The notes: generated by a model from the letters alone, not told the origin. 64,000 nt of DNA from Tubulanus polymorphus (GCF_964204645.1 NC_134032.1:4984175-5048174), one strand, 5' to 3'; shown: positions 1-53,379, numbered from the stretch's first letter. Program-made: numbers and translations.

Positions 1-109
1 CCATAACAGACCCGGCCGCTATAGAAATGAACTGTTTATAGATTTTATCATATTTTACAAAAATGACCCGGCCGCTGCGGAGAAACAAGGTATCATTTTT
101 GTTTAGCCT

Positions 110-559: not shown

Positions 560-579
560 TTAATTTTTTTGTTAAATAA

Positions 580-1814
580 ATGACTGGGAGTTATATCAAT
601 CCTTCTAAGAATCATAGAATATCTAATGCTATTAAAGCAGAAAGATCACATCATATAATTACTCATCCCAATGAAACTTTATATGTTAGAATTCCTCGAT
701 TAACACAAAATACTTTTTATGTTCCAAATAGTATTTATTTATCAGCCGATATAAAAGTAATCGGTAATAATAATAATTATGTTGTTGATAATGTTGGAAG
801 ATATATTTGATTAAAAAATTAACTATAAAGATGGGCCCAGAAACAGTTTTCTCATTAGATGATTATAATTTATTTATGCATTATAAAGATTTATGGTTAA
901 CTAAAGAAAATAGAAATAATATGATATTTCAAGGAATCCAATCAGAAAACCAAAATAAATTAAGATCAGAAGCACATAATGCAATATTAACTAATGCTGT
1001 AGATAAATTGATAAAAAGTATATATGGAAGCAAATATAAAATTCCATTAGACTTTGAATTGATAAATAACAATGCACCTTTATATAAATACGCAATTCAA
1101 GAAGACGTTATATTTGAGATAACATTTGCTGCTGTTAATGAAATCGTTATATCTAGCGTTAATAAAGATATGAGTTATAAATTATCGAATATATGTTCAG
1201 AATATGATACAGCAACTGATGAAAATATTTCAAGTATAATTCAAACTAAATCCAATCAAGCATTTTCATTATTATATGATTATATTGTTAAATTTAAAAC
1301 TGTAACTATTAATGCAAATGATGAAATTATTAATGAGAATATTAACTTCCCAAGAAGATCTATTAAAGGTATATTAATATATTTTTTTATAATTGCAACA
1401 TATACTAATGGCGCAATAAATGTTGATAATTATTATAATCCTGAAATAACAAAAGTTGAAATAACTATCGAAGGAATAGCAAATAAAATATTTTTTCAAG
1501 GAATGAGAATGATTGATCAATGGCCAGAAATTAGAAAACATTTAATGAATGAAAAAGTAAAATCATCTGAAAATTGTAATATTAATCAAATTGATTATTT
1601 TACCGGTAATAAATATACATTATGATTAGATTTTAGAACAACAGAAGATAATTCATTACATGGTTCTGGAAAAAAATTACAAAACACTAAAGATGGAATA
1701 CAATTATTCATGACAAAGAATAAAGGAATCAAAAATTTTAAAATGCACATTTATATAATATCTGACGCGCAATTAAATATTGTAAATTCTCAATTAAATA
1801 GTGTTATGTATTAA
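580..1814 (+). pseudogene. Major capsid protein (double jelly-roll), disrupted
   Basis: ORFs 580-810 and 807-1625 join through a 2-nt frameshift; reading continues past TGA 1623 (LDFRTTEDNSLHGSG) to TAA 1814. ~410 codons with Polinton capsid-like beta-rich motifs (LYVRIPRL, YVPNSIYL, VGRYLIKKL). 18-bp deletion relative to copy C near 665. Confidence 0.75.
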
Positions 1815-1846
1815 AATTTTAACTTCAATAAAAATTTATATAATAA

Positions 1847-2780
1847 ATGGAAGGAGGTAAAGTATATAAACATATTCCATACATCGATAGACATGAAAAT
1901 AATGATGGTTTATATTATGTAATACCTTGTAATATAGCTTTGATATATAGCTTTGATATTTGATCCTATTTTCAAAATTTATAAAACTAAACTAATAGAA
2001 ATAGATAATAATAAAAGTGAAGTTGTTGATAATTTAAGTAATGTAATTGATAATAATGTAATACCTTTTACATCTAATAATGTAATACCTACTACATCTA
2101 ATAATGTAATACCTACTACATCTAATAATGTAATACCTTCTACATCTAATAATGTAATACCTTCTACATCTTATAATGTAATACCTTCTACATCTAATAA
2201 TGCAATAATATTAAATGTTAGTGAAAATAGAAATTATTGTGATTATTGTAAAGGCGAATTTTCAAACGCTCCATCAAATTGGAATAATCATATGAATACA
2301 AAGGTACATATTACTAATGTAATAGATCGTGTTGGTAAAAAAGAATTTATAGAACACCCATTTAGATATGTTACAAAGTTTGTTTCAAATCAAAAAGTAA
2401 ATGGTGAAAAAATTAATGAAGATTTATTATTAGCAACACCTAATAAAGATGAATTAGATTTAACCGATGCTATTAAATTAATATCAAACATTGTAAATGA
2501 AATATTAGGAGCAAACACTAATAAAGATAATAATGAAAATGGTGCCGTATGGCACCCACATGGTGATATAGTTACAGGAAAGCGCATTGATAATAAAGAT
2601 TCTTTGAAACTTAAATCAGAAAATAAAGATATAGTTGAGATGACTAATAAGTATATCAATAAACCAATTATTTATGAAGATTCGGTAGAGCATTTGAATA
2701 AATTGTTAGGGTCTGATGATGAATTGGAGAGTGATGATGAAAGTGATTCAGAAAGTAATTATCTAACACTCAAAAAGTAA
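1847..2780 (+). pseudogene. Polinton ORF with 8-aa repeats and a zinc finger (5' frameshift)
   Basis: TAAATG start at 1847; ORF 1953-2780 has TSNNVIPx repeats, CDYC...H...H and an acidic tail. Confidence 0.6.
2050..2200 (+). repeat. 24-bp coding tandem repeat (TSNNVIPT), ~6 copies
   Basis: ACATCTAATAATGTAATACCTACT repeated; also at ~59470-59620. Confidence 0.9.
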
Positions 2781-3135
2781 TAAAGGTTGAAAATTGTATA
2801 AAATAATAGTAAATAAAAAAGGGGGTTTTAAGTAATAAGGTATCTAATACATATCTAATACGTATCTAATACGTATCTAATACGTATTTAATACATATTA
2901 TTTGAAAATACCTTAAAATATATTTCTTTTTTAAATTTATATTGAAACCTCAGTAATAATAAATAACCTTTATTATTTTCAAATTTATTCATATATTAGT
3001 TGAAAAAATAAAAATAAATTGGTTAAAAACTGTATGAATAATATTTATTTTAAAAATGGGGTTTTAAGATTTAATGTATTTAATACGTATTTAATACGTA
3101 TTTAATACGTATTAGATTGATAGATATATAAATAG

Positions 3136-3747
3136 TTATTTTATAAATTTATATTCATATGGAAATTGTAATCTCAGTAATAATTTTGAACCTTTATTAT
3201 TCTTTAATTTATTCATAGATTCATCATGTAATTCAGTGGGTATAATTTGATTTTCTTCCAATGATTGTTGCATAGATTTTCTATCTTTATTGTAGAATAA
3301 AACTAGAAATCTTATATTCTCCGTAAAGTCTTTAACAATTGAATTATATTTTAGATTTAAAACCCATGTTGTTATCCCAAAATGTCTCCCAGAGAAAGCT
3401 AAATAACATAACTCACTTTCTCTAACTTTTGAATCATGTAAATTTGCGCAATCATCTACAATGAATAATGTATTTGATCCTTTATAAGTATCAATTGCTT
3501 TTTTTATACAATTATCTAAATTTTCTTTTACTGTTTTAGGATCTAATATAATAAACTTTTTTATCTTAACTATATCTCTATTATATGTTTTATTCATTTC
3601 ATAAGTAGGACAGAATAATATTATATTATCAAAATGATTCTTATAAATAGTTTCTAACAAATCTAATATGAAATGTGTTTTACCACAATTGGTTACACCA
3701 GTAACTAACATATTATGCGGTTCGAATATAAATAAATCTTTATTCAT
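3136..3747 (-). CDS. A32/FtsK-like DNA-packaging ATPase
   Basis: Walker A GVTNCGKT, Walker B LFIVDD, GRHFGIT motif; start overlaps the integrase stop. Confidence 0.92.
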   Translation of the reverse strand: MNKDLFIFEPHNMLVTGVTNCGKTHFILDLLETIYKNHFDNIILFCPTYEMNKTYNRDIVKIKKFIILDPKTVKENLDNCIKKAIDTYKGSNTLFIVDDCANLHDSKVRESELCYLAFSGRHFGITTWVLNLKYNSIVKDFTENIRFLVLFYNKDRKSMQQSLEENQIIPTELHDESMNKLKNNKGSKLLLRLQFPYEYKFIK

Positions 3748-4825
3748 TTATTCTTTTAATTTTGCTAGATAAAATCCATTCATTAAATTTATCATCATAT
3801 CCTTTATATTTCACCAAAGAATACTTTTTTCCTTTAAGAGTTTTTGATTTCAATACTTTTTCTATTTTGTATTCTATTTCATCTGGATTTGGTACAAGTG
3901 ATAATTTTTGTACATAGAAATAACCTAATATTTCTTCATCTTTTAGATCTTCTAATTTATAAACGAAAGGTTTAGTTAATATTATCTTTTTAATCTTAAA
4001 TATTTCTTCAGTAAAATTTGGAGTATAACCTTTATAAAATGTTTTTCTATATTTAGATATTCTGACGTGTTGTCCTATTTTAAATTTGGGTTCTCCGAAA
4101 TCATGTGTAACAAACACACCATACAAATTATTCCAAACTATTTCCGAATTATCTTCTTTTCTAGCTTGTATAGGTTTCATATTTATAGAACTATGTTTAG
4201 AATTATTATAACCTTTCACTAAATCATCTAATACATCGATATATTTATATGTTTCATTAGCAGTAAAGTATTTCCACATTCTAGTTTTCAATGTTTTATT
4301 AAATCTTTCTATAATAGATGCTTTTTTATCTGAATGTGTTGAAAAATAATCTACATCGTTATCAGATAATAGTTTTTTGAAATGTTTGTTATAAAATTCC
4401 TTACCTTCATCAAATTGTATCTTATCTGGAATAGCTTCTTTAAATATAGATTTAAAAGCATTTGTTACTTCTACACCAGTTTTATTTTTGATTGGAACTG
4501 ACCATGCGTATCGACTGAATATGTCTATAACATTTAATATCCAGAAATATCCTTTGTTGTATTCCTCTAAGTTCTTCATGTCAATTAAATCAGCTTGCCA
4601 TTGTTGATCGATATATGAAACCATAACTTTTCTTGTTAAATAAGTTTTATCCATTTTCTTGTGGATTTGATACGTTGGTTGATTTTGTAACCACGATTTT
4701 AATTCGCTATATTTTATATTTTCCTTATCAGATTTAATTTTACCCCATAATTCTGAAACGTTAGAATATGATACTTCACTTTCTGGGTTGTAATAGAAAT
4801 CTTTCAAATATTGTTCTTTTTTCAT
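3740..4825 (-). CDS. Retroviral-like (rve, DDE) integrase with C-terminal chromodomain
   Basis: WQADLIDM, IDIFSRYAW, IQFDEGKEF, IERFNKTLK; chromodomain YKIEKVL...LVKYKGYDDKFNEWI; intact 361 aa. Confidence 0.96.
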   Translation of the reverse strand: MKKEQYLKDFYYNPESEVSYSNVSELWGKIKSDKENIKYSELKSWLQNQPTYQIHKKMDKTYLTRKVMVSYIDQQWQADLIDMKNLEEYNKGYFWILNVIDIFSRYAWSVPIKNKTGVEVTNAFKSIFKEAIPDKIQFDEGKEFYNKHFKKLLSDNDVDYFSTHSDKKASIIERFNKTLKTRMWKYFTANETYKYIDVLDDLVKGYNNSKHSSINMKPIQARKEDNSEIVWNNLYGVFVTHDFGEPKFKIGQHVRISKYRKTFYKGYTPNFTEEIFKIKKIILTKPFVYKLEDLKDEEILGYFYVQKLSLVPNPDEIEYKIEKVLKSKTLKGKKYSLVKYKGYDDKFNEWILSSKIKRINE

Positions 4826-5201
4826 CTTATTTTAATCCATTAATAATAATTTACATTTAGTTTCAATGACTTTATGATTTGACTTATTTTCTGGTATAAT
4901 AGATTTATTGTCTTTGGAATCATCTTTATCATCAGATTTGAATTTTGATTTATAAATTACACCGGATAATATAATAACTGTTACTAATCCAATTGTAATA
5001 TATATCAGTTAATTTCTTTTTCTTAGCTTTTTTTAATTCTGAAGATCTTTTACCTAATTCTCTTGCCCATTTAATTTGTTTCTCGGATCTAGGCTTTTTC
5101 TTAACGCCATCACTCATTTATTTTAGTTAATTTTTGTTCTGATTCATTTTCTGTTTCGACGTTTGGTTGAGTACATCTGTTTCGTTCTTACCTGATTTAT
5201 A

Positions 5202-5711
5202 TTACATAGGTTTGATGTTCGAAAATGTTATGACGCCAGTAGAAATTAATGTAATAACCGATCCTAATTGAAATGAAGCATAACCAACCCATTTTTGTAA
5301 TTCAGTCATTTCTAAATAGTCATTTTTCAAATCACTATATAATTTATTTTCATCATTAATTGGTATTAACTGGTTACATAACTTAGAATAACATTTGGCA
5401 ATACCATCTGAATTAGAATCATTTATTCGGGCTAATCTTGCCTCTTCATAAATCTTAAAATGTTTTATTACTTTATCGGGTTTCATAGAGTCTAATTCTT
5501 GAAAAGTAATACTTCTATTTAAAAACTCTTTAGATTTTCCGCCAGCAATCAATAGTTCTAGATGATGCTTACAATATAAATAGTATTCATAATCAATATT
5601 ACAATTAACTTGAGCACAATTAGTTCCAACTGTATCTTTATTATCACTAATACCCAAATCATCTAATGTCTTTTCAATATCAATACTATTCTTACTCGAT
5701 TTCTTTGACAT
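5202..5711 (-). CDS. Polinton hypothetical protein, 169 aa, hydrophobic C-terminus
   Basis: Open ORF with TAAATG start context, same strand as the integrase. Confidence 0.6.
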   Translation of the reverse strand: MSKKSSKNSIDIEKTLDDLGISDNKDTVGTNCAQVNCNIDYEYYLYCKHHLELLIAGGKSKEFLNRSITFQELDSMKPDKVIKHFKIYEEARLARINDSNSDGIAKCYSKLCNQLIPINDENKLYSDLKNDYLEMTELQKWVGYASFQLGSVITLISTGVITFSNIKPM

Positions 5712-6432
5712 TTATATTAGAGAAATTTAATAAGAAAAAATATTATAAGTATTACAAAATGATACTAGATAGTTAAAGTTAAAGAATTCTAGTATTGACT
5801 ACTGATACTAGCTATTTGAATTTAAAGAATTTCTATTTGAATCTATTCAAAATATAAAGTATTCTTTTTTGAAAAGAAAATATTAAAAATATAATAGAAT
5901 TCACTAGCTAGTTGAAGTTATTGTTTTTTAAATACTTTTTATTTAAAATCTATTTGATATCTCACTACTTTTGTTTATCTATTAGGAGCAGTAATTATAA
6001 CTGTCCAGATAAGTCATTTCGGATCCTTGATATCAAATTCCTCAACGTATTGTTCATTATTTGGATCATTGTTCCATTGATCAATAAATTTCTTTGCCTT
6101 TGTTAACTGTTCTAAGTATAACTGTAAATCTAGTTTATTAGATTAGATTTTATTTTCTTTCTTTTCAAGAGGTCTTAAATTTTTCAAATTCCAAATAAGT
6201 TTTTTATTGTATTCATCATTCCTTTCCATTTATAAATCAAATTTTTATTAAAATTAACATTTTAGAATCCTCTTCCATTTTTTCGACAAACGTCATCCTT
6301 TTTCATTCCTCGCTGCTTTTGATAAGTCATTTCGGATCCTCGATTAAAAATCCTCAACTGAAAATCAATTCAACGAAACGACTGGTGGAAATATCATTTC
6401 ATAAACACATATATTTATTATGTAAATTTTAG

Positions 6433-6790
6433 CGATCGATAATAGAACAATGGAGAACAATAGAAAAGCGGTCCAATCGGACCGGTTATTGCGCAATACA
6501 CAGTTATATTTTTATTCTGTAAACTACAACATTCAAACATAGAACTGTAACCAATCAATATTGAGCAGCTGTTTCCGTCAACAACGATCAATAATAGAAC
6601 AATGGAGAACAAAAGAAATGCGGTCCAATCGGACCGGTTATTGCGCAATACTTAGTTAACAGTAAACAATCAATACAGAACAACCGCCGCCATTAACAAC
6701 GATCAATAATAGAACAATGGAGAACAATAGAAAAGCGGTTCAATCGGACCGGTTATTGCGCAATACTTAGTTAACAGTAATCAATACAAT
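6433..6790. repeat. Subterminal array, 3 copies of a ~65-bp core with palindromes
   Basis: CGATCAATAATAGAACAATGGAGAACAATAGAAAAGCGGTCCAATCGGACCGGTTATTGCGCAATAC at ~6435, ~6585, ~6700. Confidence 0.85.
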
Positions 6791-6854
6791 ATTAAAACAG
6801 ATATGTACAATCGAGATTACATTTTTTGATATCTAAGACCTTCAGTGTTATGAT

Positions 6855-7259
6855 TTATAATTTTGTCCAGAATTCTTTAATTACTGGATTGTTTCCAATC
6901 ATTTCTTCAATTTCTGGTAAATATCTGACTACTTCACTAAATGCTAATCCTAATATTTTGAATTTTTCATATTTTATTAATCCACCTACTCTTCTCAGTT
7001 TTCTTTCAAAACCGGCACTGATATCTCCACTCATTTTCTTAGTTTTCGATTCTTTGAGTCCCAACAGCAATTTATGTCGCATTGCTGGTAGTTTTGGTAA
7101 TTGTAGTTCGCGCGGTAATTGTTTATTATGTATTACGTCACTCAGAATTTTCACCATTTCTTGATGATAATCTATTGATTCCTGAGTTTCACTATCCAGC
7201 AGCAATCGTTCCTCACCCGTTGGTTGGCTTAGAATTTCTGGTTGATCTCTGTATTCCAT
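6855..7259 (-). CDS. Polinton subterminal hypothetical protein, 134 aa
   Basis: Open ORF; a degraded, divergent counterpart appears at ~62490-62800 in copy C. Confidence 0.45.
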   Translation of the reverse strand: MEYRDQPEILSQPTGEERLLLDSETQESIDYHQEMVKILSDVIHNKQLPRELQLPKLPAMRHKLLLGLKESKTKKMSGDISAGFERKLRRVGGLIKYEKFKILGLAFSEVVRYLPEIEEMIGNNPVIKEFWTKL

Positions 7260-7612
7260 TTTAATCTAAAAGATAAAAAAACGTGAAAATGAATTACTGT
7301 ACTTTAATATGTTTAAAGGTTTCCCTACTTCATAATAACTACAAAAAACGGTACTTACATTTAGATTTAGAACTGTAAACTGTATTTTGAGAGAGAATAT
7401 CCAATACGTACTATGTATGTGAAAGTTGATTTCTAACTGCCGACGTGGCGCACGTTCGACCAAACTAATTCTTTCTGCACAGATGTTCTTTATGATGAAG
7501 TTAATTAATTCTTTAGAATTGAAAACAAGATATATTTGGCAACATATGTTTTAGTAGTAAGCAAAAGCTATGTATTATAGACATACAAAGCTCAAATAGA
7601 ATTGCCAGCTTT

Positions 7613-8273
7613 CTAACCACTGATTAAAACCTCAGAACGCGGTTGATTCTGTGAAATACTATTCCATAATTCAACAAATGTCTTTGCTTTATCCAGTTGA
7701 TCTAAATATAACTGTAAATCTAGTTTATTAGATTTAATTATGTCTTCCTTCTTTTCTAAAGGTCTTAGATTCTTCCAATTCCAAATAAGTTTTTTATTGT
7801 ATTCATCATTCATGTCAAATTTAGAAATCGACAACACGTGATCAATATGAAAGTATTCGCCATAATTATCTATACTCATTTTATCGTCGAATTGATATAT
7901 TATCCATGATTTGAGAAATTCATCTGAACAACCCAACAAATTAGATAATGTTTCTGAATGTGTTTCTTTGTTGAATAATTGTGTTAATCTAGATCTTAAG
8001 CATTGTTTTAATCTAAAATTAAGATCTGTTTGATATCTTCCTCTCATGTATTCTGTCATATAATCATTGTAAGCTTCTCTATTATCTTCTCGATATTGTT
8101 TGGTATATAGTTTAGTACAAGTTTTACAGCAATATTGAAAACCATCTTTGCTAATCTTACGATTCTGTTATAGCTAATTTATCTAATTCACATTTAGAAC
8201 ACTTCTAGTAGTATATATTTATGACACCAGTGTTATTTGTAATATTGATAGTTTGTGGTTGTTCTGATTCCAT
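7613..8273 (-). pseudogene. HNH endonuclease with N-terminal zinc ribbon (frameshifted)
   Basis: HIDHVLSISKF...WNWKNLRPLEKKEDIIKSNK; homologous to the intact ORF 61023-61682. Confidence 0.8.
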
Positions 8274-8291
8274 TTATTATACATATTTTTT

Positions 8292-8688
8292 TACTAAATT
8301 GATTTTAGAAGTTCAATGATTTATATCATGTATTATTTCAATCACACTTTACTAACACTTTTAATGTTTAAAAATCTAACTCATACAAATATAAATATTG
8401 AAATAATGTTGTAAATATATCTATCTATATATTCTATAAGAGCTCACACTTTTATATTGAATTATCTGTCAATTTAAATGTTATTCATGTATATGATTAT
8501 TTTAAGAGTAATAGGGGTAATAGGCTTTCAGGTTAAAGGTTGAAGGGGCAAGTGAGTAAAAATAACAATAATTTACAGTTGAATTAGCAGTGTGCGCGAC
8601 TAATTCAACTGTAAATTATTGTTATTTTCATTTTTTTACGAGCTCGACCCTTCGACCTTTGATCTGAAAGCCTATTATCCCTATTACT
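8292..8688. repeat. Right TIR of copy A; outer 182 bp (8507-8688) is a self-complementary hairpin
   Basis: Reverse complement matches the left end of copy C (48828-49279). Starts AGTAATAGGGGTAATAGGCTTTCAG at 8507 and ends CTGAAAGCCTATTATCCCTATTACT at 8688. Confidence 0.92.
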
Positions 8689-11600
8689 CACGTGGCTGGT
8701 TATGTTCGAACAGAATTCAAATAACATCAAAATTCAACGCCGGCGAACCTCTGCAGAACATTCGAAATTACTGTTTTCATATCGTCACACGTACGCACGT
8801 GTTCAGTTTTCAGACTTTTTCACGTCGTGCAACTCAAGTTTTCACGTTTTCGCGGTGGATGAAGTTAATCACCCTTCAGCATATGTGTTTTCTAGAAATT
8901 CGGAGGACCAAATTTAAATGGACAAGAGGGCATCTGTTACCCTGATATAAGTCACATATTTTATAATCATACGTATCTACAGTTTCATATCGAATGGTTC
9001 ATAATATTTCATATCTCTTACTACATGAAATGCTTAATAGTGATAATAATATCAATAATATGATAAAACTTATGAATATAGTATCAATATATGCTTTATC
9101 GTAATCAACATGTCAGACTACTCGATCTGTATTCATAGTAATTAGCTCTAGTCAGTGCTCATCAATAATTAATTAATTAATTAATAATTAATTAATGTCT
9201 CTTAGACATGTCACTGGGAGTAAGTTTGTGAGTCCTGTTGTCAACAACTTGTCTGACACCTAGTTCTCACATTATACTCATGATTCTGTATATAAAGACT
9301 ATGTAAAGTTATACTAATCTTCTCATTCCGGGATGCAATACAGATTGTAGATATAAGGTTTAAATGCCCTGTTGTTCCTGATGGATGGAATCCTGTAACG
9401 CTGGTATAAATGCTTGTTCCCCAGCCAGCCTGCCGATACAGTTCACAGTTTACTCGGTGTTAAATGAATTGTCAGTCCTGTGTGAAATGATGTTGTTAGT
9501 TTAAGGAGAATTGCATAAGACTGCTTGCCTTTTTGCACAATTTACTTGTATCCTACAACTTACATCATAATATAGAGAAATTGAATAATGATAATGATTC
9601 AGATTTTCTTTTTTATAGAGCATCTCAAAACATCGATAGTTGAGTAGAATAATTCACTCTCTAATGAGATACTAACCATAGACAAAGATAAAAAAGAAAT
9701 ATAATGAAAAAAATATGCACAAACCCAAAACAATAAGATTCTCTAAACAAATATGCCTGTTCAGATTTTTTGTTAAGAAAGCATGTTTTCCCGAACAAAC
9801 ATCATAACACATAATGATACTATCAAATCAAGATAATCTGAAACCCCTTTTAGGTATTTGTTTATAATTCCCTATAATTTGAGAAAAAAGGATTTAAACT
9901 GGGAAGAACCTTGGTCCATTGATTTTAGAGGTATTTGTTTTTCTTTTTAGACTCTCAAAACATTCTTGCCGGATATGTTATCGGCGAACTATGGTTATAT
10001 CATGAACATAGCATCAATGGCTGGATATCATGCAACATCCTATCTGACTGATTACTGGTAAGCACTGATGAACTCCCGTATTCATTCTGACGACTTATCA
10101 TTTTTTTCTGATGTTAGTTGTATTAACGGATTAGCTCTGTTCATCAAAATTATCACTTTTGGTAAGTTTGATACTTTAGAACGACCTTTTTCTGCCGTAG
10201 AACTCCGTAGGGCCAGGTCAGGTATGATGTCATGTACGGGTCGATAATACAGGGTGGCTCCGATGATATCGAAATCATGAGGCTATACGTTCCAGGATCG
10301 ATCTTCATCTCCTTATCAAGTTAATTCGAAAAAGTTAATTCGAAAGGAATTATACTTTACACCGTTCTTTTACCAGTTCTAAACGTATTAGTGTCACGAT
10401 TGTTTCAATCAAGTCGAGTGGAGTATGCATTTTAGTGATCCAAACCAGGCAAAGCCAAGATATCCAACAGCATTTTCTCCCACTCATGGCAAATGCAGTT
10501 ACTGTGGTATACATTGGCTAGCCCCTAGTCATTGTAGGCCCAAGTTTAATCAAAATGACATATGGCCCGTTAAAGCCCAGTATGGCCTATGCCAGTATAT
10601 TGGATCCAAAGTCCAAATGTTCCTACACATCTCATTTTGAAAGTAAATTCAAATTTAAATACCGTTCACGTAAAATATTAAAAACAACTGAATAAATCAT
10701 ATAACAATTTTCTATTATACCCTTCAACATAGCGTCGCCAGATTTTTTATTTAATGTCTAAATCGTATATTTACTCTTTATATATACCACATTTAATTAT
10801 GTGGATGATGAGATGGGGTTGAACAATAGCGTACTGATCATATATTTCAAATTATAAAAGAAGTGATGCATAGGCTAGCCTACGTCAATCCGTTTATATT
10901 GGATACATTGAAACCATATTGCTTTAACTAACTGATTTCTGACGACAAATGCAAAAAACTTTCAAAATTGGACGAATATTTCATAGAAACACGTTCGCCA
11001 ACGATCCTGGCGAGCTCTCGAGAGCTCTCGTTAACTAATGACATTCTGATATGATTACTTCGATATTTCGCTGGGACGGACATCATGAGGCAGGCGCCGG
11101 CGGAACGTTAATTGCGTTTTTCGTGAATGTTGAAAAAATATTGGCATGTCCCGGAATCGGTGACCACAAAAGCACGTCGTTCGGCAACAAAAAATTGTTG
11201 ATGGAACAGGACAAAGTCGTCGTAGCTACCCGATCAATCAAAACGTATATATGGCCAAGCGTTCAGTAAACACACATATAATATAGATTATGTTATTCCT
11301 GAGCGCAATTAATGCCAATTACTCGTGTAGTTTAACATATTAAATGGGAATTTCATTAAATTTTGGATCGCTAGATTTTGCTTTATTTTTGACAAAAAAG
11401 TTTGAAAAAAATATCCGGCTTGCAGACTTTTAGACTTCTCTACGCTTAACTAGAATGTTTTCGATGGTGTCTGATAATCTTGATACTCTAGGGTCGAAAA
11501 GGCACTCCTTTATGTCGATATCTTAACTAGAGTAATAGGCATTTATTATATTTGTAAACAAAACTATAACTTGTATCTTGTTACAGTGCATCCAAGTTTG

Positions 11601-11932
11601 CAGTCCGTGGATTCACTTTGGGTCTCGAACATGAAATACGAGTTTGCCATAAAAAAGACTACGTTCACGTGACCGGAGTTTACCCGATGTTTGTTGACAC
11701 TGGAATGACATGGTATCCTAAGTCTAGGTCAGTATCACTTGGTAAAATTTGTGTGAAGTAAAACTGTTGAGTCATCCTAGTCTATACATGAGTACATACG
11801 TATATTCTCCACCGATACTCCACTGATTGTGTTTACAGTAGAATAGGAAACATAAGTAATAGGAAAAGTAGGCTTTCAGATCAGAGGTCGAGACACCTCT
11901 CATCACCACAAGTAATTTTTTTTCCCTTATTA

Positions 11933-14900
11933 ATGGAGAATGAACAACAGCCAGAAAACAATAATGTCAATAAAAATCAATATTATTGCCCATATTGTAA
12001 CAAATACATCGATAAATCACAAAAATCACGACATGAAAAAACTGCAAATCATATAAAAAATGTAATAGATTTTGAAACTCCAGAAAATTCCAATGAAAGA
12101 AAAGAACGATTAGAAAATATGAATGTGGATGAAATAAAATGTGAAGTTTGTAATGAATTTATAACAAAAAGGAATTATAAAAGACATCTCAAATCACAAA
12201 AACACCACCAAAATTTGAGTAATAATGTTTTAGGAAAAGATTATTTCGATGATAAACCTCAAAAAGTAAAAAAAAACAACTTCAAAAACTAAATCCATTT
12301 CAAATAAACCTTACATGGAAAATGTTAGAAATTATATTGATTCACTAGAAATAAAAGATAAAATTGAAATTTTAGAAACATTACGTAGTAAAATTGGTCC
12401 TGCAGCTATTATATTTAGATTTTTTAAAGGAATAACAATAGAAGATTATAGTAAATTTAATGAAATAATAGAAAAAATACTAGATTTGATAACAGATGTT
12501 GAATATCCAAAAATTAGTATCTCTGGGAAAGTAAGTTTTATAAAGTCAGAAGAAAAAATGGATTATAATATTCAAACACTCTCCGAAGAAATAATTTCAA
12601 AAAACGCAAATAAGAGAAATTAGAAAAAATATTTAATGAATTTAAACGTCATATTGAAGAAAGATATTTTGAGGGTTCTGGCTTAACATTGAATGAAATT
12701 ATATATTTAGATTTATATGTTTATAATACAAAAAGAAATAAAACATCAAAAAGTAATAAAATGTTTAAAAAAGATTCAAACTTTACAACAGAAAAGGATA
12801 TTAAAGCATCATCTTATATTAAATTACCATTTACAACAAAAGCCGTAATAAATATTCAAAATGAAGATAATAAATGTTTTCTATGGTCAATTATTAGTTG
12901 CTTACATCCAACACAGGAAAATGTTTGTAGAATAACATATTACCGGAAATATGAAACATTATATAAAATTGATCAGTATCCAGTAACTATAAAAATGATA
13001 CCCAAAATAGAAAAAATTAATAATTTAAAAATAAATGTATTTGAATTAATGCAATTACCAAATACAAAAGGTGAAAATATTAAAGATTATACATTGGAAG
13101 CTTTATATTTAACAGAATATTATGATGATGAAAATGCTATAGATTTGTTATGTTACAAAAAAGATGAAAATGAACATTATATGTGGTTAAAACAAATTGA
13201 TTTATTCTTTAGAACATAAAGTGATCACCATAATAAAAATTTATCTATGTAGAAAATGTTTATCTAAATTTATGACTGAGAATACATTATTAAAACATAA
13301 AGAATTATGTGATAATAAAGATTTTTGTAAATTAATAATGCCAACAGAAAAAGATTATAAATTGAAATTTACTAATCATAAATTTAAGAATATTGTTCCA
13401 TTTGTAATTTATGGGGATTTTGAATCGTTGAATAAATAATTAACTGATCAAGATAGAAAAGAAATATATAACAAAAAGCAATTATTAAAATCAATGGATA
13501 AAGGAAATGAATTAAATGAAGACACAATACAAGACCCACCAATTATAAATACAATTAAAAAATCTCATCAAAGAGCTGCTGCTTGTGGAATTTACATAAA
13601 ATCAAATTATCCTGAATTATATGAAAGTCAATATATTTCTTTTAGAGGTGAAGATGTAGTTAATAATTTTTGTAACAAAATAATTGAATTAGAAAGTGAT
13701 TTTGCAGAATTATTAAACAAAAATAAAAGAATAGTTATGACAAAAGAAGATGAAATTGATTTTAATTATGCAACTCATTGTTGTTATTGTGAAAAACGTT
13801 TTTATTCATTTGATAAAAAAGTTAGAGATCATGATCATTTAAATTCAAAATATCGTGGAGCTGCTCAAGAAGATTGTAATTTACAAGCTAAAAACGTTAA
13901 TTTCGTTCCAATATTATTTCATAATTTATCAGGTTATGATACCCATCTATTTATAAAACAATTATCGGGAAAATTGGGCGCAATTAATCAAGAAATAGAA
14001 GAATATAATGCTATGAATGGCGTAAATGTAAGAAAATATGATTTTAAACTATTAGCTAAGACATCTGAAAATTATATTTCATTTCAATTTGGTTGCATTA
14101 CATTTTTAGATTCTTATAGATTTCTAGCAAGTTCATTAGATAATTTAGCAAAAAGTTTAGTTGATAATGATTTTGTTATAACTCGATATTATTATCCAAA
14201 TGAACAAGATTTTAAATTATTGAGATATAAAGGCGCAATACCTTACTCATTTTATAAAACGCATGATGATTTCAAAGAAACAAAATTAATGAAAGAACAA
14301 TTTTATGATCAATTAAAAAATGAGTACGTGAAAGATGAAGTTTTTGAAAGAACAATTAATATATGGAATCATTTTAGAATAAAAACCATGGTAAATTAGT
14401 AGATTTATATTTAAAATCTGATGTAATAATATTTGCTGACATATTTGAAAAATTTAGAGAAGTCAATTTGAATCATTTTAATGTTGATCCCTGCTATTGT
14501 TATTCATCACCAGGTTTAACATGGCAATGTGGTTTGAAATTTACAGATATAAAAATGGATTTGTTAACAAATATAGATATGGTATTATTGTTTGAAAAAT
14601 CTATTAGAGGTGGGATTAGTGGTGTTATGGGAGATAGATATTTTAAAGCAAATGATGAATATAAATTATTATATATTGACGCCAATAATTTGTATGGTTG
14701 GGCAATGATGCAACCTCAACCATTCAAAAATTTTATATTAACAGAAGTTGAAAATGGTGATAAACCTGATTGGGAAAGCGCAATTGCGAGTTTAAAAGAT
14801 GAAGCACCAATTGGTTATTTCTTTGTAGTTGATTTAGAATATCCTGAAAATATGAAGTTTAAAACAAGAAACTTACCTTATTGCCCAGAACATTTAGTCG

Positions 14901-16977
14901 TAGATGATAGTTATTTAACTGAATACCAGAAGAAAATAAAACCAAAAGATCATGTTTTTACAGAAAAATTAATACTTACTCAAAATAATAAATACAATTA
15001 TATTGTTCATTATAGAATGTTAAAATTTTATCTAAAACAAGGAATGAAATTAAAGAAAGTACATAGATATATTGAATTTAATCAATCGAAGTGGTTAGAA
15101 AAACATATAGATTTTGATACTCAACAGAGAACCATATCTAAAACAGATTTTGAAACAGATTCTTCAAATTAATGAATAATAGTTTTTATGGTAAAACATG
15201 TGAAAATATTAGAAATAGAAATGATATTGAATTAGTAAATAATTCTGAAAGATTAAGACATTTACAATCAAGTCCTAGACATTTAGGAAATAAAAGATTT
15301 GAAGATTATTTAACCGCGGTAAAATTAAAAAGAACGTCAATGAAATTTAATAAACCTATATTCATTTGTTCAACTGTTTTAGACGTATCAAAATTATTAA
15401 TGTATGATTTTTATTATAATGTTTTACAACCACTTTTTGGGGAATAGCATGTTGAAATATTATATTTTGATTCTGTAACAGCTGACACCCCAATATTATT
15501 AAAATGTAATGATAAAATATTGATAAGAAGAATTTCAGAAATAATTCCAAAACAAAATGAACTTTATATTTCATATGGTGAAAAAGAATTAATACAAATA
15601 AATGGTTTAATGGATGTTTGGACAAGAAATGGATGGAAAAAATTAAAGAATATTATTAGGCATAAAACAAATAAGAAAATCTATAGAGACTGAACTAAAT
15701 TAGGGTTTGTAGATGTTACAGAAGATCATAGTTTAATTAAACGAAATGGCAATGAAATGAAACCAACTCATATAAAAATTGGAGATGAATTATTACATAA
15801 AAGATTTTTCCAAAGAATGAAAAATATGTCATTCGATGAAATTATTAATTATATTTATAATATAGAACCTGAAACATTAGAAGAAAAAGAATATTTTATC
15901 AAAGGATTTTTCATGGGTGTGTATAAATATGTTAATCGCACTCAATATCGTTGGTATTTATGCAATCAAGATTTGAAATTATTAGAAAGAATAAAGAAAT
16001 TCTGCGAAGAAGTTTATTCACATAAAACATTTAGAATCGTGGATCATATGAAATCATCCGCGGTTTATAGAATATTTGTAAATAATCCTAAAGATTTTGC
16101 TACAAAATATAATGATGAATTCTATATTCATGCAATAGTTAAAAGTAATACTTCAACTAAAGAAAAGATAGTTCCAGATTATGTATTAAATGCAAAAAAT
16201 AATTTAAGAAAATGGTTCTTCATTGGATTCTATGCTGCAGATGGTTCAAAAAGTTTCAAAAACCACAAAACAATATCTTAACCTCAAAAAGGAAAAGTTG
16301 CTATATCAGGGTTAAATATATTATGTAATTCATTAGGCTTCAATATGAATATTGGATTGATTAAATCTAAACCAAATTGCTTTAATTTAAACCATGTAGA
16401 AAATGAGTTAACAGAAGAAGTTAAAGATTTATTTGAAATATATAACCCAACGGATTATGTTTACGATTTATTAACTGAAGATGGTACATTTAACTGTGGA
16501 TTTCCATTAATTGCGTTCAATACTGACAGTTACATACTAAAAATCAAGACAAATGACATAACAAAAGACTTAAAAACATTAAAACATCATTTTGATTTTA
16601 GCAATTATCCCAAAGATCATGAACTATTTAGCAATGATAATAAAAAGATTCCTGGTAAATTTTAAGATGAATTAGGGGGTGATGAAATGATTGAATTTGT
16701 TGGGATAAGAAGTAAAATGTATAGTTACAGAACAAAAGATCATGAAGCTAAAAAGTTAAAAGGAATAACAAAACATGTGGTTGATAAACATATAGAATTT
16801 CAAGATTATATAAAGTGTTTATACAACTCAATTGTAATGAAACACAAAATGAATTGTTTAAGATCAGAAGATCACGAGATGTACATTAATGAAGTTCAAA
16901 AAACTAGTTTGAATCCATTTGATGATAAAAGGCATATTTTAGATGATGGTATAAAAACATTACCTAATGGTTATTAA
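11933..16977 (+). pseudogene. polB: Protein-primed DNA polymerase B with intein, fragmented
   Basis: N-terminal zinc fingers; OTU-like NEDNKCFLW...EHYMWLK; exonuclease VIYGDFES and FHNLSGYD; EndoVII/HNH insert VRDHDHL...RGAA..CNL; polymerase motifs YIDANNLYGWAM, MNNSFYGK and YFD|TDS. Many stops and frameshifts. Confidence 0.95.
15472..16521 (+). mobile_element. Intein with LAGLIDADG homing-endonuclease domain at the pol-c site of pPolB (350 codons, two internal stops)
   Basis: In-frame 1050-nt insertion between YFD and TDS that is absent from copy C. Block A SVTADTPILL, block B VDVTEDHSL, EN motifs YFIKGFFMGV and WFFIGFYAADGS, block F YVYDLLTEDGTF, block G IAFN, +1 Thr. Confidence 0.95.
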
Positions 16978-18299
16978 ATTATAAAATCAATATCATCAAA
17001 CTCGAAATCACTATTGGTTTCTTCTTTTTCATTTAATTGTTCTTGTATAATTTGTTTAGGTTCTTCCATTTCATTTTTCTCATTTAAATAACGTGTTATA
17101 TTGTGCCACATTTCATCTCGCTCTCTTTGTTTCTTTTTGTTTGTTAATTCATCAAATGGAATTATAATATCGATGTTTAAATAATTTACAATCTTATTTA
17201 AAAAGAATTCATAATTAATTGAATCTGTTATTCTATTTTCTAAATAATACATTAATATTTGTTTGAATGTTTTTTTTTATATTTTCTATATCTTCTTCTG
17301 TTAATTTAGGTTTTTCATAATAATCGTTAAATAATAAATATAAATACATTTTTTTTTCTTGTGTGTTAAATGTTGATGGAATAATTGTTTTTATAATATC
17401 TTTTTTAGTTATTTCACCATTTTTATTTTCTATTATTTTCATTTTTTCAAGCCATTGCATATATTCTGGTGTATGATCTATAGAAAATATTTTAAAAATT
17501 TAATCTAGATAATTTAATTTTGGTTCTATGAGAAAATCTCTAGTTTTTTCTTCACCTCATAAATTCCTTTACCATCCACATTCATTACAAAATAACACAG
17601 TACCTTCTTGTCTTAAGGTCGCATAACTACATCGTGGGCATTTTGTTTATAATTTATTGGTAATAGATCTTCATTAAGCTCTTGGTATTTTCTTACGTTT
17701 TCTTTATGTTTTATTGTTCTATTATGTAGATTTGAATTACTTGTTGTAATAATCAATTTACAATATTTACAATAATATGTTTTTCTTGTTAATTCATTAT
17801 ATTGTTTTTCTAACTTTTCAACTGTTTCTTTATTATCTGGTAACGTTTTCTCATATTTTATTTTTTCTAATAAACTATTTTTTCTTTCATTGAATTCTGC
17901 TTCAAATTTATTAGAAATTTTATCTATATGTACTTTACGAAATTGATGATTCTCCCAATCTTCTATATTTTCAGGGCTATATTTCATTCGACAAGGCTCA
18001 CAGAAATGATCTTTTATATTATCCTTATCATAGAATAAGAAAGGTCTTTTCCAAATAATTTCAGGTTCAACTTCAACAGAATTACTATTACTTTCGTTAC
18101 TATCAACATTAGCCGTTGCACCATTAATTTTACACTTCTCTGAATGTTTTTTAAAATAATTTCTTGAGAATAATTTATTACATTTTGGGCAGTTTATTTT
18201 AGGAAGTTTATAATTTTCATCATGTTTTTTCATATGTCGAGCCATATTACTTTTTCTTAGAAGTTCACCACAAATTTCGCATGGTATCTTCTCATCCAT
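16974..18299 (-). pseudogene. Multi-zinc-finger protein convergent with pPolB; probably one broken gene (17613-18299, 17233-17460, 16974-17252)
   Basis: CEIC..H..H, CPKC..H..C, CEPC..H..H, CKYC..H..H; TAAATG start; absent from copy C. Confidence 0.65.
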
Positions 18300-18367
18300 T
18301 TATTTAGGAAAGATTTTATTAAAATTAAATTTTAGTGATGAGCGGTAATTTTTTTATGTTATAAATA

Positions 18368-19146
18368 ATGGTAGAAATAAAAGAATACAGAAGATTTGTT
18401 GATTCTAGAAAACTTTTAAATTATAAATCACATAATTTACTAATACAATTAGATAGAGAATTTAAGAATTGTGTTGATTTAAAATTATTAAATATAAATT
18501 TATGTAACTCATTTTACAATATATCGGATAAAAGTCTAGAACATTTAATTTTTTCAATCTTTTACAAAAAAAGGAATAAATGGTTTTTATATATTTAAAA
18601 CCAGGATTATATAATTTAGATACATTAGCACAAGAAATTAATAGAAAAGCTCGAGCTTAATTAGGAAGTTAGGATTCCGGATTTAGTATTAGATTTTCAA
18701 AAAGTGATATTTATAATAAAATAAAGATTAGGTTGGCTCATGAAGAACAATTTAAATTTACAGTAAGAAAACCTCTAGCTTAACTGTTAGGAATTAACCC
18801 AGATATTGTTACAGTAAACGCAGAAGGTAGATCAAATTTAATGCCTTTAACACACTTTTATATTTATTGCAATTTAATTGATCCTACAAAAACATTTAAA
18901 GCAACTAAAGATACAACATGTATTTCTAGTATACTAAAAATTTTACCATTAAAAAATGTTAAAAAATTTGGGACGCAAATAAATTATAATTTAACAGAAT
19001 GTGATTTTAAACCTTGCATTCCACATTTCAATAATTTCAAAATAGAAATAAGAAATCATAATGGTTATTTAATTGATTTAAATAACTTTCCTGTGATATA
19101 TGAATTAGTTATGAGATGTAGAGTAATTTTTTCAGTATATAAATGA
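18368..19146 (+). pseudogene. Minor capsid protein (penton), disrupted
   Basis: FVDSRK, NSFYNI, KPGLYNL, YIYCNLI, IRNHNGYLIDLN resemble the Polinton penton pattern. Confidence 0.72.
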
Positions 19147-19501
19147 ATATAACTGTTGGACCGAGTATATGTTTTGGATTTGATTTTAAACGTGAGAAAG
19201 AAATGAAATTTAACATTACTGATGTATTATTATACATATTAAAAATATTGCATTTTCTAATGAAACAACATTTGAGTATGAAACAACAATAGATAAAGAA
19301 ACTTTAAATGTAGAAAAGATTACTAATTTAATTAGAGAATCTTTAAGATTTTATGAATTAGATGAAGATTTTATTATAGATGATATTAAAAAAATAATAA
19401 TTGAAATATATACAAATGAAACTAGTAATGAAATAAATGTTGAAATAATCATCACTAAGATAACTAAATATTTTAAAGATGTTAATTTTTTTGATTAATA
19501 A

Positions 19502-19723
19502 ATGAGTGATAATAAGTGGATAATAACTGGATTATATAATGGAGCATTACTATCAGTTGGAACTGTTGGTTATTCAATGGTATTAAAAAAAGTATTTAAA
19601 ATGGGAAGTGTTAATGTTGATAGATTTGATATAAATGATATTTTAAAATTAACATTAGCAGTTACTTTATCTAATTTAACTATTGATTATTTGGAAAAAC
19701 AAAAATATATTCCTCCCATATAA
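19502..19723 (+). CDS. Small hydrophobic Polinton protein, 73 aa
   Basis: TAAATG start; conserved in copy C (54871-55091). Confidence 0.65.
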   Translation: MSDNKWIITGLYNGALLSVGTVGYSMVLKKVFKMGSVNVDRFDINDILKLTLAVTLSNLTIDYLEKQKYIPPI

Positions 19724-19748
19724 ATACATAATTATTTTGCTAAATAAA

Positions 19749-20171
19749 ATGGCTTCTGCAGTTATAACTATTATAGGATCGGCAATTGTTAACGCTTTAG
19801 CATTTACTGGTGGTGGTTATTTATTTAAGCATATTGATAAAAATGGATCATTAACAGAACAAAAAAGACATAACTTAGCATTAGAGAAATATAATAAAGC
19901 AGCAGAAGAATATAGAGAAAAGAGACAAAACTATATGGATTATATTAACAAAGAATTATATGATCAGAAGATTTCACATAGAGATTTTCAATCAGTTGAT
20001 GATGCAATGAGTTATTATAACGCGGTAACCAATGAAGAAAAATTACATCTACATAAACCTACAATATCAGATTATTATACCCCAAGTAATGAACAGAAGA
20101 AATATGAAATAATATGGATTTTAGGTGGAACAGTTATTGTTATATTTGTAGCGTATAGATTTACTAATTAG
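19749..20171 (+). CDS. Polinton membrane-anchored protein (MASAVITIIGSA...)
   Basis: Hydrophobic N- and C-termini; conserved at 55116-55514 and in copy D. Confidence 0.7.
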   Translation: MASAVITIIGSAIVNALAFTGGGYLFKHIDKNGSLTEQKRHNLALEKYNKAAEEYREKRQNYMDYINKELYDQKISHRDFQSVDDAMSYYNAVTNEEKLHLHKPTISDYYTPSNEQKKYEIIWILGGTVIVIFVAYRFTN

Positions 20172-20190
20172 TAACTTTTTTGACAAATAA

Positions 20191-20614
20191 ATGGATGATA
20201 ATATTGATATTATTCCTCATGATATAAATAAAACTAAATTAAAAACATATTTAGAAAAACAAATATTAGAATTTGAAAGAGACTTAAAGATAAAAAAGAA
20301 AAAATATTTAAAAAGTAAAATTATATATTATTTGATTATAAGTGGTTCGGTTATAATTAGTTCTGTAATAACATTTCTAGCAATATTCAGTCCATTAACA
20401 CCTTTAGCTATATCAATTGGTGTGTTAGGATTATCATCGAGTGTTTTAACCGGCATAAGTTAAAATTAAATATAAAAAGTAATAAAGAAAAAATTAAAAC
20501 TAATATAAAAGAAATTAATAAATTAAAAAATTCACTAGATTATATAATAAGTTGAAATGGTCATATAACAGTTGAAGAACAAGATATATTATTAAAAGAA
20601 TTAATAAATTATTA
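20191..20614 (+). pseudogene. Polinton two-transmembrane protein, disrupted
   Basis: Two hydrophobic helices; homolog at 55535-55960. Confidence 0.6.
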
Positions 20615-20631
20615 ATTTTTTAATTATATAA

Positions 20632-21915
20632 ATGGTAGATAGTTTTCCAAAAGCTTTCCAATATAATAAATCAATTAAATATAATATTCCTGCAATAGAT
20701 TTTAATAAAGATATTTCATATAGAAATGAAGTTTTAAATTCATTTATTGATTTATATATTTATGTTACTGAAAGTAATAATTTTCATGTAAAGATGGAAA
20801 ATATATTTCATGTGTATACAATTAATTTTAAAAATTTAAATGAGGCAAAACAATGGTTAGTAAAATCTAATATGAAGTATTGGCAGAACCAATTAAATTT
20901 TGCTGTTTATTGCGCAACAACAGGATGTGGAATAAGTTGGAATGATCATTTAAACAAACCAAGTTTACCATTGATGTTATCACTCTTTAGATTTCATATT
21001 TATTTTCAAATAAAATTAATATTAGATGAATTAGAATGTCCTTTACCAGGTTCAAAATATCTTAAAGAACTAAATAATAATGTTAATCTTTCTAAGTTTT
21101 ATAAAATATGTAATGAATTTAATATTAATTCAAATAAAGATTTGAGAGCAAAAATTGGAACAATGGGTGGATTAGGAATATTATATACTAAAGAATTTGG
21201 AAAAATAATGACAAATTCAGATATAAGAACACTAAATTGGAATGAATTACAAAGAATAAATCAATCAATTAGAACTTATTTGATATGTATTTTAGGTGCG
21301 CAAGTTGAAACAAGATCCCCAACAGTTGGAAATGATAACACTTCATTTGATGCGCAGAAACAATTCAAAGTATTATTTGAAGATTCCATTCATAATGATA
21401 AAAATAGATCGATTCCAGAAAACATTGTAAGATATCAAAATTATTTAGATAAATCACATATCAGATTAAATTATTGTATAGGTCCTAATCTATTAATTAT
21501 TTCTAATGATTTAGTATTAAAGATGGGAAACATAATTGGTTACAATAATCTAATTAAAACTGCAACAATAAATAATTCATTTGGATTAAATGATATAAAT
21601 AAACAGATTATCACTGCTCCAAAATTAATGGAAGGTGAAAAAAATAAAAAACATATTCAATCAACTGAAACTAAAACTAAGAATATTAAATTGAATAATG
21701 ATTCTAAACCGGATTATAATACATCAGAAAATATTAAAACTGATAATATTCACCATGATATAATTAAACTAAATGATGGCAATAAATCCCATGAAAATGC
21801 TAAATTAGCTTTAACTTGTATAGGAATTGTAATCGGAGGAATATTATATTTTAATTTTTTTTATTATGTAAATGGCAGAAGGTTGAGAAGATTTTACAAT
21901 GGATCCTTTAGATGA
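20632..21915 (+). CDS. Conserved Polinton protein of unknown function (~400-430 aa)
   Basis: WQNQLNFAVYCATTGCG motif; near-identical to 55983-57137 but missing ~35 internal codons; exact 3' end uncertain. Confidence 0.7.
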   Translation: MVDSFPKAFQYNKSIKYNIPAIDFNKDISYRNEVLNSFIDLYIYVTESNNFHVKMENIFHVYTINFKNLNEAKQWLVKSNMKYWQNQLNFAVYCATTGCGISWNDHLNKPSLPLMLSLFRFHIYFQIKLILDELECPLPGSKYLKELNNNVNLSKFYKICNEFNINSNKDLRAKIGTMGGLGILYTKEFGKIMTNSDIRTLNWNELQRINQSIRTYLICILGAQVETRSPTVGNDNTSFDAQKQFKVLFEDSIHNDKNRSIPENIVRYQNYLDKSHIRLNYCIGPNLLIISNDLVLKMGNIIGYNNLIKTATINNSFGLNDINKQIITAPKLMEGEKNKKHIQSTETKTKNIKLNNDSKPDYNTSENIKTDNIHHDIIKLNDGNKSHENAKLALTCIGIVIGGILYFNFFYYVNGRRLRRFYNGSFR

Positions 21916-22217
21916 ACCTGGTATAAGTGATGAACAACCGCCTGATTTTGGTGAAACAAGTTATAGTAACGATAATAAAACAAAATTTAAATACTAATTT
22001 ACCAGAAGTTGTTCCTGGTTCTAAAGCCCCATCAACAGATGAATATATTAGAGGAGCTAAATCGAGAATAGATATTGAAAATCAACATCCAGAAATAACG
22101 TTAAAAGATAATAATGTTAAAAAGATCTGGTTTCAATATAACAAATAAAGGTATGAATTATTTAGTAAAAGATTTAAAATATTTAGATGGTGATTATTAT
22201 AGGAATTTGAAAGGTAA

Positions 22218-22380
22218 TTAGGGTTTTCTGTTACATCACAGAAAACCCTATTGATATCCGCGTGATTATTAGGGTTTTCTGTTACATCACAGAAAACCCT
22301 ATTGAGATTCGCGTGTTTCTTATTATTATTAGGGTTTTCTGTTATTTCACAGAAAACCCTATTGATATCCGCGTGATTAT
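22218..22380. repeat. Three copies of a palindromic unit at the breakpoint of copy B
   Basis: TAGGGTTTTCTGT-N6-ACAGAAAACCCTA at ~22219, ~22270, ~22330. Confidence 0.85.
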
Positions 22381-49246: not shown

Positions 49247-49300
49247 GATATAAATCATTGAACTTCTAAAATCAATTTTAATAAAAAATTTAGTATTAAA

Positions 49301-53350: not shown

Positions 53351-53379
53351 TCAAATTTCAATAAAAATATGTATAATAA

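Follow-up and report, generated by a model that had tools for sequence, protein, structure and literature searches.

A LAGLIDADG intein splits the catalytic motif of a protein-primed Polinton DNA polymerase in a ribbon worm's nuclear genome

The host locus and its Polinton copies

The window, meaning the whole 64,000-nucleotide stretch that was analysed (NC_134032.1:4984175-5048174), comes from Tubulanus polymorphus, a palaeonemertean ribbon worm, and lies on a 16.7-Mb contig. Two exons of a 17-beta-HSD13-like gene are present (Table 1), and both are 100% identical to the RefSeq proteins XP_074656354/5 of this species, so that an initial annotation, made from the DNA sequence and describing an animal-like genome, was right on this point. 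The remaining exons of isoform X1 are absent from the window. A Polinton, here called Polinton A, starts 125 nt past the second host exon, within the following intron. The last exon of RefSeq isoform X2 lies within Polinton A (21877-21915), a predicted exonisation of viral sequence, and because this isoform ends inside copy A, the annotated assembly has Polinton A at this locus. We conclude that Polinton A, which carries the intein described below, resides in animal nuclear DNA and is contiguous with a spliced metazoan gene.

Two further copies of the same family occur in the window. Polinton A and Polinton B share the same left terminus and are collinear at ~74-89%. In Polinton A, a truncated element, neither a right terminal repeat nor an integrase was found. 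Polinton B sits in a Bel/Pao pol gene, encodes an intein-free protein-primed family B polymerase (pPolB) and is missing its integrase segment; its terminal repeats are themselves hairpins (129-nt arms, 90%), and its target duplication is perfect. The third copy is represented by its right part. Across the three collinear copies the Polinton hallmarks PF03175, PF00665 and PF04665 were found, together with the terminal inverted repeats and target site duplication of copy B. The open reading frames (ORFs) at 792-1625 and 18784-19146, which we take to be candidates for the double jelly-roll capsid, penton or adenain protease genes of the family, gave no Pfam, PHROG or PDB match, and the one model obtained had a pLDDT of 42.6. 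Free-standing endonuclease VII-like ORFs were located on the minus strand near the family's right end (7613-8167 and 61023-61682; phrog_1035, E 5e-9), and rearranged, partly palindromic family fragments lie in the opposite orientation at 39695-41740. Elsewhere in the window are an open 844-aa DUF1280/PHD ORF (34827-37361), with RAG1-like RNase H clusters among its atlas neighbours (scores 0.81-0.83, leads only), and tandem arrays of 31-nt and 161-nt units (23600-25300, 29500-30300 and 37229-38172).

Pfam and tblastn evidence identified the gene surrounding the insert as a Polinton pPolB, as initially annotated. A PF02945 match lies within it at 13440-14396, and because the polymerase bears an endonuclease VII/HNH insert, we place it in the divergent Beta class, following the terminology in the available part of PMC8502044. 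With the open relative P0250 as reference, 5 frame changes and 4 stops were counted in polymerase A outside the intein, and 4 frame changes and 5 stops in polymerase B. We conclude that the polymerases of both copies are dead.

Table 1. Coordinates of features in the window (a slash marks the intein insertion point)
Feature	Position	Strand	Remarks
Third family copy, right part	1..8688		right terminus at 8688
A32-type packaging ATPase, third copy	3136-3747	-	
rve+chromo integrase, third copy	3740-4831	-	
Host exon, 17-beta-HSD13-like gene	9951..10057	+	AG...GT borders; XP_074656354/5
Next exon of the same gene	11587..11729	+	
Polinton A	11855..22220	+	left terminus AGTAATAGG at 11855; collinear with Polinton B to ~22.1 kb
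Beta-type (endonuclease VII/HNH-bearing) pPolB gene of Polinton A	11975..16977	+	tblastn with P0250, P0002 and P0004
N-extein end, YFD	15463..15471	+	first Asp of polymerase motif C
Intein	15472..16521	+	350 codons, 1,050 nt; in frame with the family B polymerase gene
C-extein start, TDS	16522..16530	+	+1 Thr and catalytic Asp of motif C
Polinton B	48828..63606	+	377-nt terminal inverted repeats (98%); 6-bp target duplication CTCCTC; same family
Empty intein site in Polinton B	52811..52828	+	YFD/TDS at 52819/52820

Borders, residues and fold of the insert

An in-frame insertion of 1,050 nt had been annotated as splitting YFD/TDS. The insert begins with SVTADTPI and ends with Asn, and is preceded by EILYFD and followed by TDSYIL, which supplies the +1 Thr. 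Global alignment of Polinton A with Polinton B needs a single gap, of exactly 1,050 nt, and the borders are therefore set by an empty allele rather than by motif guessing. The empty allele in Polinton B thus bears out the annotated insertion.

The splicing residues expected of an intein, as listed in the initial annotation, were all present: a Ser start, block B TEDH (residues 83-86), block F YVYDL, a terminal Asn and a +1 Thr. The splice residues of the window intein are S1, T83-H86, D332, N350 and +1 T. All 119 extracted full-length family members likewise begin with Ser and end with Asn, with TEDH and the block-F Asp conserved. The penultimate residue of the window intein is Phe, not the usual His. 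Because the penultimate pair across the family (n = 119) is KN in 52 members, HN in only 46 and FN in 4, a penultimate His is not defining for this allele family. Two LAGLIDADG-like helices had also been reported, of which the second held up, motif 2 (FIGFYAADG) being whole, but the first did not: compared with the other 11 Polinton inteins in the motif table, motif 1 lacks its acidic core, 15 nt having been deleted in frame. In all 11 of these, both motifs are whole and their acidic residues are kept. The window copy had been called dead, and stop codons interrupt it at 15691 and 16279 as claimed; the extein is broken too. We conclude that this copy of the intein, with its two stops and deleted motif 1, is a pseudogene.

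Profile searches and structure prediction addressed the identity of the insert. Read with X at its stops, the insert matched TIGR01445 (intein N-terminus; E 8.7e-5) and PF14890 (E 8e-4), so the proposal that reading through the stops would return intein profiles succeeded in finding matches but not in reaching curated cut-offs, both scores lying below them. Pfam gave no match to three stop-free pieces of the insert, and phmmer gave none between the single insert sequence and PDB; a profile search matched PI-PkoII (E 5e-15). An AlphaFold model built with 46 aligned sequences had a pLDDT of 87.5 and a pTM of 0.88. The best PDB matches of the model by Foldseek were all to inteins that contain an endonuclease, namely the TliVMA, PI-PkoII, PhoVMA, PI-SceI and PI-PfuI inteins (E 2.8e-15 to 2e-9), and the best viral structure matches (BFVD) were PolB inteins of phycodnaviruses, Pandoravirus, Megavirus and Marseillevirus. 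Model, Foldseek and profile matches together indicated a Hint fold split around a central domain, with the Hint N-part at residues ~1-110, the LAGLIDADG domain at ~135-310 and the Hint C-part at ~320-350. Moreover, the insertion point is the pol-c site, xD/TDS of family B motif C, and the insert is kin to other pol-c inteins. That Mimivirus and archaeal PolB inteins use this site, as the initial annotation had stated, agrees with the available part of PMC549080, where it reads YGD/TDS.

Three other identities were rejected: a spliceosomal or group I intron on account of the codon-exact insert, the splice-residue ends and the Hint fold; a Hedgehog-type Hint domain on account of the empty allele and the endonuclease; and the known HNH/VSR inserts of Polinton polymerases, which occupy a different site and are without Hint. 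We conclude that the insert is a Hint and LAGLIDADG class 1 intein, an identity supported by profile matches and by the predicted fold.

Relatives, trees and allele states

Among longer proteins, 295 of 3,258 candidates were homologous to the intein at E<=0.001. The best 120 of these 295 comprised 8 pPolBs with an insert at the same site and, for the rest, mostly conventional PolBs, together with 9 topoisomerases and a few others. The best relative, P0002, is a pPolB with 60% intein identity at the same site (E 2e-128), and P0003-6, P0008, P0010 and P0011 are pPolBs with inteins at that site at 38-47% identity. Among proteins of similar length, 33 of 1,640 were related (identity up to 73%), and the flanks were pPolB-type in the six that were checked (P0164-P0167, P0169 and P0170). 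A full-length intein in an open reading frame is found at the same site in P0002, P0004, P0005, P0010 and P0011; PF14528 scored above its cut-off in P0002, P0004, P0005, P0010 and P0164, as did PF14890 in P0004. In a metagenome scan, 80 loci were recovered, with best-segment identities of 29-52%; the 5 whose neighbours were scanned look like giant-virus contigs. Neighbour genes at 5 PolB loci encode PCNA, D5 helicase, Hsp70, adenine methylases and ubiquitin enzymes, which would fit a giant-virus origin of those loci. Pattern-based, weak scans of IMG/VR with P0002 and P0170 returned no related locus.

The wider family extends to other proteins. DNA polymerase delta of the green alga Chloropicon primus (P0093/P0153/P0154) carries a pol-c intein of this family at YGD/TDS, also in a transcript-derived record, and its C-terminal zinc finger is of the family found in true Pol delta. 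Type II topoisomerases carry inteins of the same family at DQD/TDG or DAD/TDG (P0007, P0077, P0080, P0091, P0096, P0099, P0105, P0110 and P0121), and P0030, an ADP-ribosylglycohydrolase-family protein, carries one at GGD/TDT, suggesting that non-allelic moves of the intein may be guided by a D-T-D codon context. The PolB P0013 has two inteins two residues apart in motif C (YGD/intein/TD/intein/S).

Phylogenetic analysis was performed with IQ-TREE under a mixture model on 56 of the 119 inteins, including 12 Polinton inteins. The 12 form one side of a branch with support of 91/71 (88% of bootstrap trees; not starred), and together with two long-branch phage-type PolB inteins they are split at 98/98 from 42 PolB, topoisomerase and other inteins. 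FastTree on all 119 inteins agreed with this grouping. The phage-type PolBs P0090, P0100, P0116 and P0119 (phrog_262) have a long-branch intein at VGD/TDG, and the grouping of such inteins with those of Polintons (98/98) is possibly due to long-branch attraction. An outgroup of three non-allelic inteins was not monophyletic and rooting failed, making the root unreliable; with this tentative outgroup, the Polinton branch arises from a polytomy of PolB inteins. The closest relatives of the window intein all reside in other Polinton polymerases (60-76% identity), and giant-virus-type PolB inteins are, by these comparisons, the closest large group. Between giant-virus-type PolBs and the window copy, inteins are 36-45% identical and exteins 19-23%. 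We conclude that intein exchange between Polinton pPolBs and conventional PolBs is clear at the level of sequence. An origin from a giant-virus PolB, as initially proposed, thus stands as far as kinship to PolB inteins goes, but its direction is not supported, the Polinton inteins forming their own branch under an unreliable root. Similarly, of the two tree placements expected in the initial annotation, the extein did fall with Polinton pPolBs, whereas the intein is not a twig within one giant-virus lineage.

Among Beta pPolBs, intein and flank identities were 62/58, 66/69, 77/83 and 50/44, and because the two track each other, they indicate long residence of the intein. We conclude that the intein has, on this evidence, long resided in a single subclade of Beta-type pPolBs. 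In P0005, a member of the archetypal PF03175 Alpha class, the intein is 48% and the extein 28% identical to the window copy, and the intein was placed inside the Beta inteins (95/87 with the outgroup, 82/32 in the 56-intein tree), making one jump between the Beta and Alpha classes likely. The best 150 50%-representatives comprised 77 empty pPolBs, 3 filled pPolBs and 70 other inteins; because the query was filled, the pPolB sample is centred on a filled copy. In an extein tree of 93 rows (the 77 empties with 4 additional ones, plus 12 filled rows, and excluding P0256 and P0005), every filled row fell in one 30-row subtree. There, 8 changes of state were needed, at least 7 of them forced by starred branches, compared with 11.4 changes when filled and empty states were shuffled (1/500 shuffles was as low as observed). 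We conclude that the intein appears to have been repeatedly gained or lost among Beta pPolBs, with at least 7 changes.

Filled and empty alleles were compared within clusters of near-identical polymerases. The P0004 90% cluster has 136 members, and among the 15 listed, 7 are filled and open (1,537-1,539 aa), 6 are empty and 2 are too short. In a divergence profile of the 7 filled against 5 empty members, from which the more distant P0135 was left out, the two classes differ by 0.4-1.1% over residues 1-1030, by 38% in the 11 residues that precede the site, by 29% and then 14% in the two windows that follow it, and by 3-4% beyond. Within the intein, filled copies differ mutually by 2%. Co-conversion of flanks, or selection for empty sites that cannot be cut, would leave divergence confined to the site in this way. 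Such divergence was seen, at the protein level, in one of three filled/empty comparisons: in the P0008 cluster the single empty member, P0142, has flanks identical to those of the filled P0139, and divergence between Polinton A and Polinton B is no higher at the intein site than elsewhere. Among P0122-P0135, from an assembly whose contigs reach 1 Mb, at least three variants of the empty site occur (YTD/CDS, YFD/TDA and YGD/TDA), as co-conversion or resistance to cleavage would predict; ~50 residues around the site are divergent and the rest ~99% identical. Many copies on long contigs suggest that the clusters of P0004 and P0008 come from eukaryote genomes.

Copy number was estimated from run X5, raw reads from another study labelled as the same species (12% of the run; 85% likeness); runs X1-X4 are possibly the source material of the window and were left out as independent evidence. 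Mean depth was 188 over six intein bins and 3.5 (median 2.9) over 12 host bins between 9505 and 11758, from which two repeat-bearing bins were left out, placing the intein at 53-64 times single copy, a rough figure that could include free viral DNA. The mean over 14 polymerase bins was 359, and with the intein at 188 (ratio of intein to flank, 0.52), this indicates that the intein is present in roughly one of every two related copies. Moreover, 26 reads join the extein flanks without the intein, and 471 reads end at the element terminus at 11855 with unlike flanks. At the first stop, 209 of 218 reads are without this copy's letter (short reads cannot phase the lesions), and contigs of three other runs continue through the motif 1 deletion point. 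Run X7 yielded no sequence over the upstream stretch, a result neutral as regards expression. We conclude that the intein is apparently present in tens of copies in Tubulanus polymorphus. A single transfer into one dead copy, as first envisaged, is therefore too narrow a description, given repeated gain and loss, unbroken multi-copy families and these tens of copies.

Proposed history and known systems

It is highly probable, in our judgment, that the window contains a broken LAGLIDADG intein at YFD/TDS of a Polinton pPolB, in an intron of a Tubulanus gene, and that its unbroken relatives, predicted to splice, likely home to empty copies. Position, borders, fold, splice residues, host locus and the co-occurrence of filled and empty alleles in one genome were established directly. 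Class 1 inteins splice by an acyl shift at Ser1, transfer to the +1 Thr and Asn cyclisation. By analogy, an N-O shift at Ser1, aided by the block-B Thr and His, would be followed here by transfer to the +1 Thr and cyclisation of the Asn. Because the intein splits the catalytic DTD and only a spliced polymerase would copy the element, splicing would be kept under selection while the element replicates. Homing endonucleases such as that of the yeast VMA1 intein PI-SceI are the model for the remaining cycle: an unoccupied site in a different Polinton copy, whether integrated or free, would be cut by the LAGLIDADG domain, and the intein, along with some flanking sequence, would be copied in when the break is repaired with a filled copy as template. 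We suggest that in the distant past one Beta pPolB subclade acquired the intein in an exchange with pol-c inteins from conventional PolBs, most likely of giant-virus type, that cycles of gain and loss and at least one jump to an Alpha-type pPolB followed, and that the animal germ line was reached as cargo of the element, integrated by its integrase. A multi-copy element would supply many empty alleles per nucleus, which an essential single-copy animal gene cannot.

One way in which a real intein could show this distribution is as a passive passenger that spliced while the lineage replicated, whose endonuclease no longer homes in animals and whose mixtures of alleles reflect precise loss and subfamily recombination. 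The tracking identities and the agreement of intein and extein trees at depth are consistent with such a history, as are the identical flanks of P0142 and P0139, the lack of site-specific divergence between copies A and B and the deletion of motif 1 in the window copy. Nevertheless, the acidic residue of both LAGLIDADG motifs is kept in 11 of 11 other Polinton inteins despite 40-60% divergence, divergence is limited to ~50 residues around the site in polymerases otherwise 99% identical, and the intein likely jumped into an Alpha-type pPolB, so that we regard loss of homing as improbable. Still less probable is a recent, one-off transfer from a giant-virus PolB to the Polinton of this worm. Most homologues are indeed giant-virus-type PolB inteins at the same site, and the Polinton branch emerges among PolB inteins with the tentative outgroup, but the closest relatives, in other Polinton polymerases, are on a branch separate from the PolB inteins, and the G+C content of the intein (25%) matches that of its extein (22-26%); the "recent and one-off" transfer is largely refuted.

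An assembly artefact or contamination, in which protist or free-virus sequence was joined into an animal scaffold, would account for close relatives coming from metagenome assemblies, and no contig spans the whole junction by a 31-letter rule. The RefSeq identity of the host exons, the RefSeq exon inside Polinton A, the presence of three family copies, one of which has a perfect target duplication, interleaved with exons of the host and a Bel/Pao element, and the independent run, with high intein depth and element ends in diverse flanks, argue so strongly against it that we give it almost no weight. Returning to an intein that homes among Polinton copies, we think it rather probable, with less confidence than in the identity and setting of the window intein, that a living homing-intein family inhabits animal germ lines, splicing from Polinton pPolBs, homing among their copies, engaged in an arms race with resistant sites and trading with giant-virus and phage polymerases.

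Metazoan genomes are described as being without inteins in the available parts of PMC6805012 and PMC5784728, one of which calls this "a puzzle yet to be explained". The literature search, with subscription journals, Repbase and supplements outside its scope, found no paper that describes an intein in the polymerase of a Polinton or in the nuclear genome of an animal, in agreement with the initial annotator's knowledge of no such case. A multi-copy intein in nemertean nuclear DNA is a direct exception to the stated absence and makes the puzzle testable. If inteins in animals occur only within multi-copy viral elements, the barrier would be a lack of opportunity for homing in single-copy genes and not splicing chemistry in animal cells, and if the homing family is living, metazoan genomes are not intein-free and Polintons would be a bridge for intein entry. 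Within the literature searched, this is also the first bona fide intein in a protein-primed polymerase. It provides sequence evidence for gene exchange between Polintons and viruses with conventional PolB, even where the site surroundings are only ~20% alike, and a natural source of inteins of the Ser/Thr type and of LAGLIDADG nucleases that evolved in the nuclei of animals, their activities being predicted. We conclude that a real, conventional intein occupies an unreported setting, in Polinton pPolBs with many copies in an animal nuclear genome and with signs of a homing cycle.

Comparison with known systems defines that setting. Iridoviruses infect animals. In free iridoviruses, 14 inteins were counted in the available part of PMC5784728, which also treats animal Hedgehog/Hint proteins; these share with the window intein a Hint fold in an animal genome but, as described there, cleave without ligating two exteins and have neither an endonuclease nor an empty allele. 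The giant-virus and archaeal pol-c inteins, as far as the available part of PMC549080 describes them, resemble the window intein in their motif C site, length (~350 aa), Ser, Asn and +1 Thr residues and LAGLIDADG domain. They differ in that the host here is a protein-primed polymerase with flanks only 19-23% identical to theirs, in an integrating element in an animal nucleus, and the intein is on its own branch. HNH/VSR inserts in Polinton pPolB2 (bioRxiv 10.1101/2023.08.22.554363; PMC11161782) likewise place a nuclease in a Polinton polymerase, but the available parts of these papers describe them away from motif C and with no Hint or splice residues, whereas the window insert is a complete intein in that motif. 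One sentence in the available part of PMC11161782 proposes intein invasions as the source of such nuclease insertions, and in the main text of the nematode study (bioRxiv 10.1101/2023.08.22.554363) the words "intein", "Hint" and "LAGLIDADG" occur 0 times. The window polymerase carries an HNH/endonuclease VII insert as well, the intein being a second insert, in the catalytic motif. Endogenised giant-virus polymerase inteins and Anaeramoeba nuclear inteins, in the available part of PMC10710043, are parallel in having a viral polymerase intein on a nuclear scaffold and viruses as carriers; the hosts there are algae or protists and the carriers giant-virus PolBs, whereas here they are a bilaterian animal and a multi-copy Polinton. 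Finally, yeast VMA1 PI-SceI has the same Hint and LAGLIDADG architecture, patchy filled and empty alleles and repeated gain and loss, but PI-SceI homes between alleles of an essential host gene, whereas homing here would be between paralogous copies of an element.
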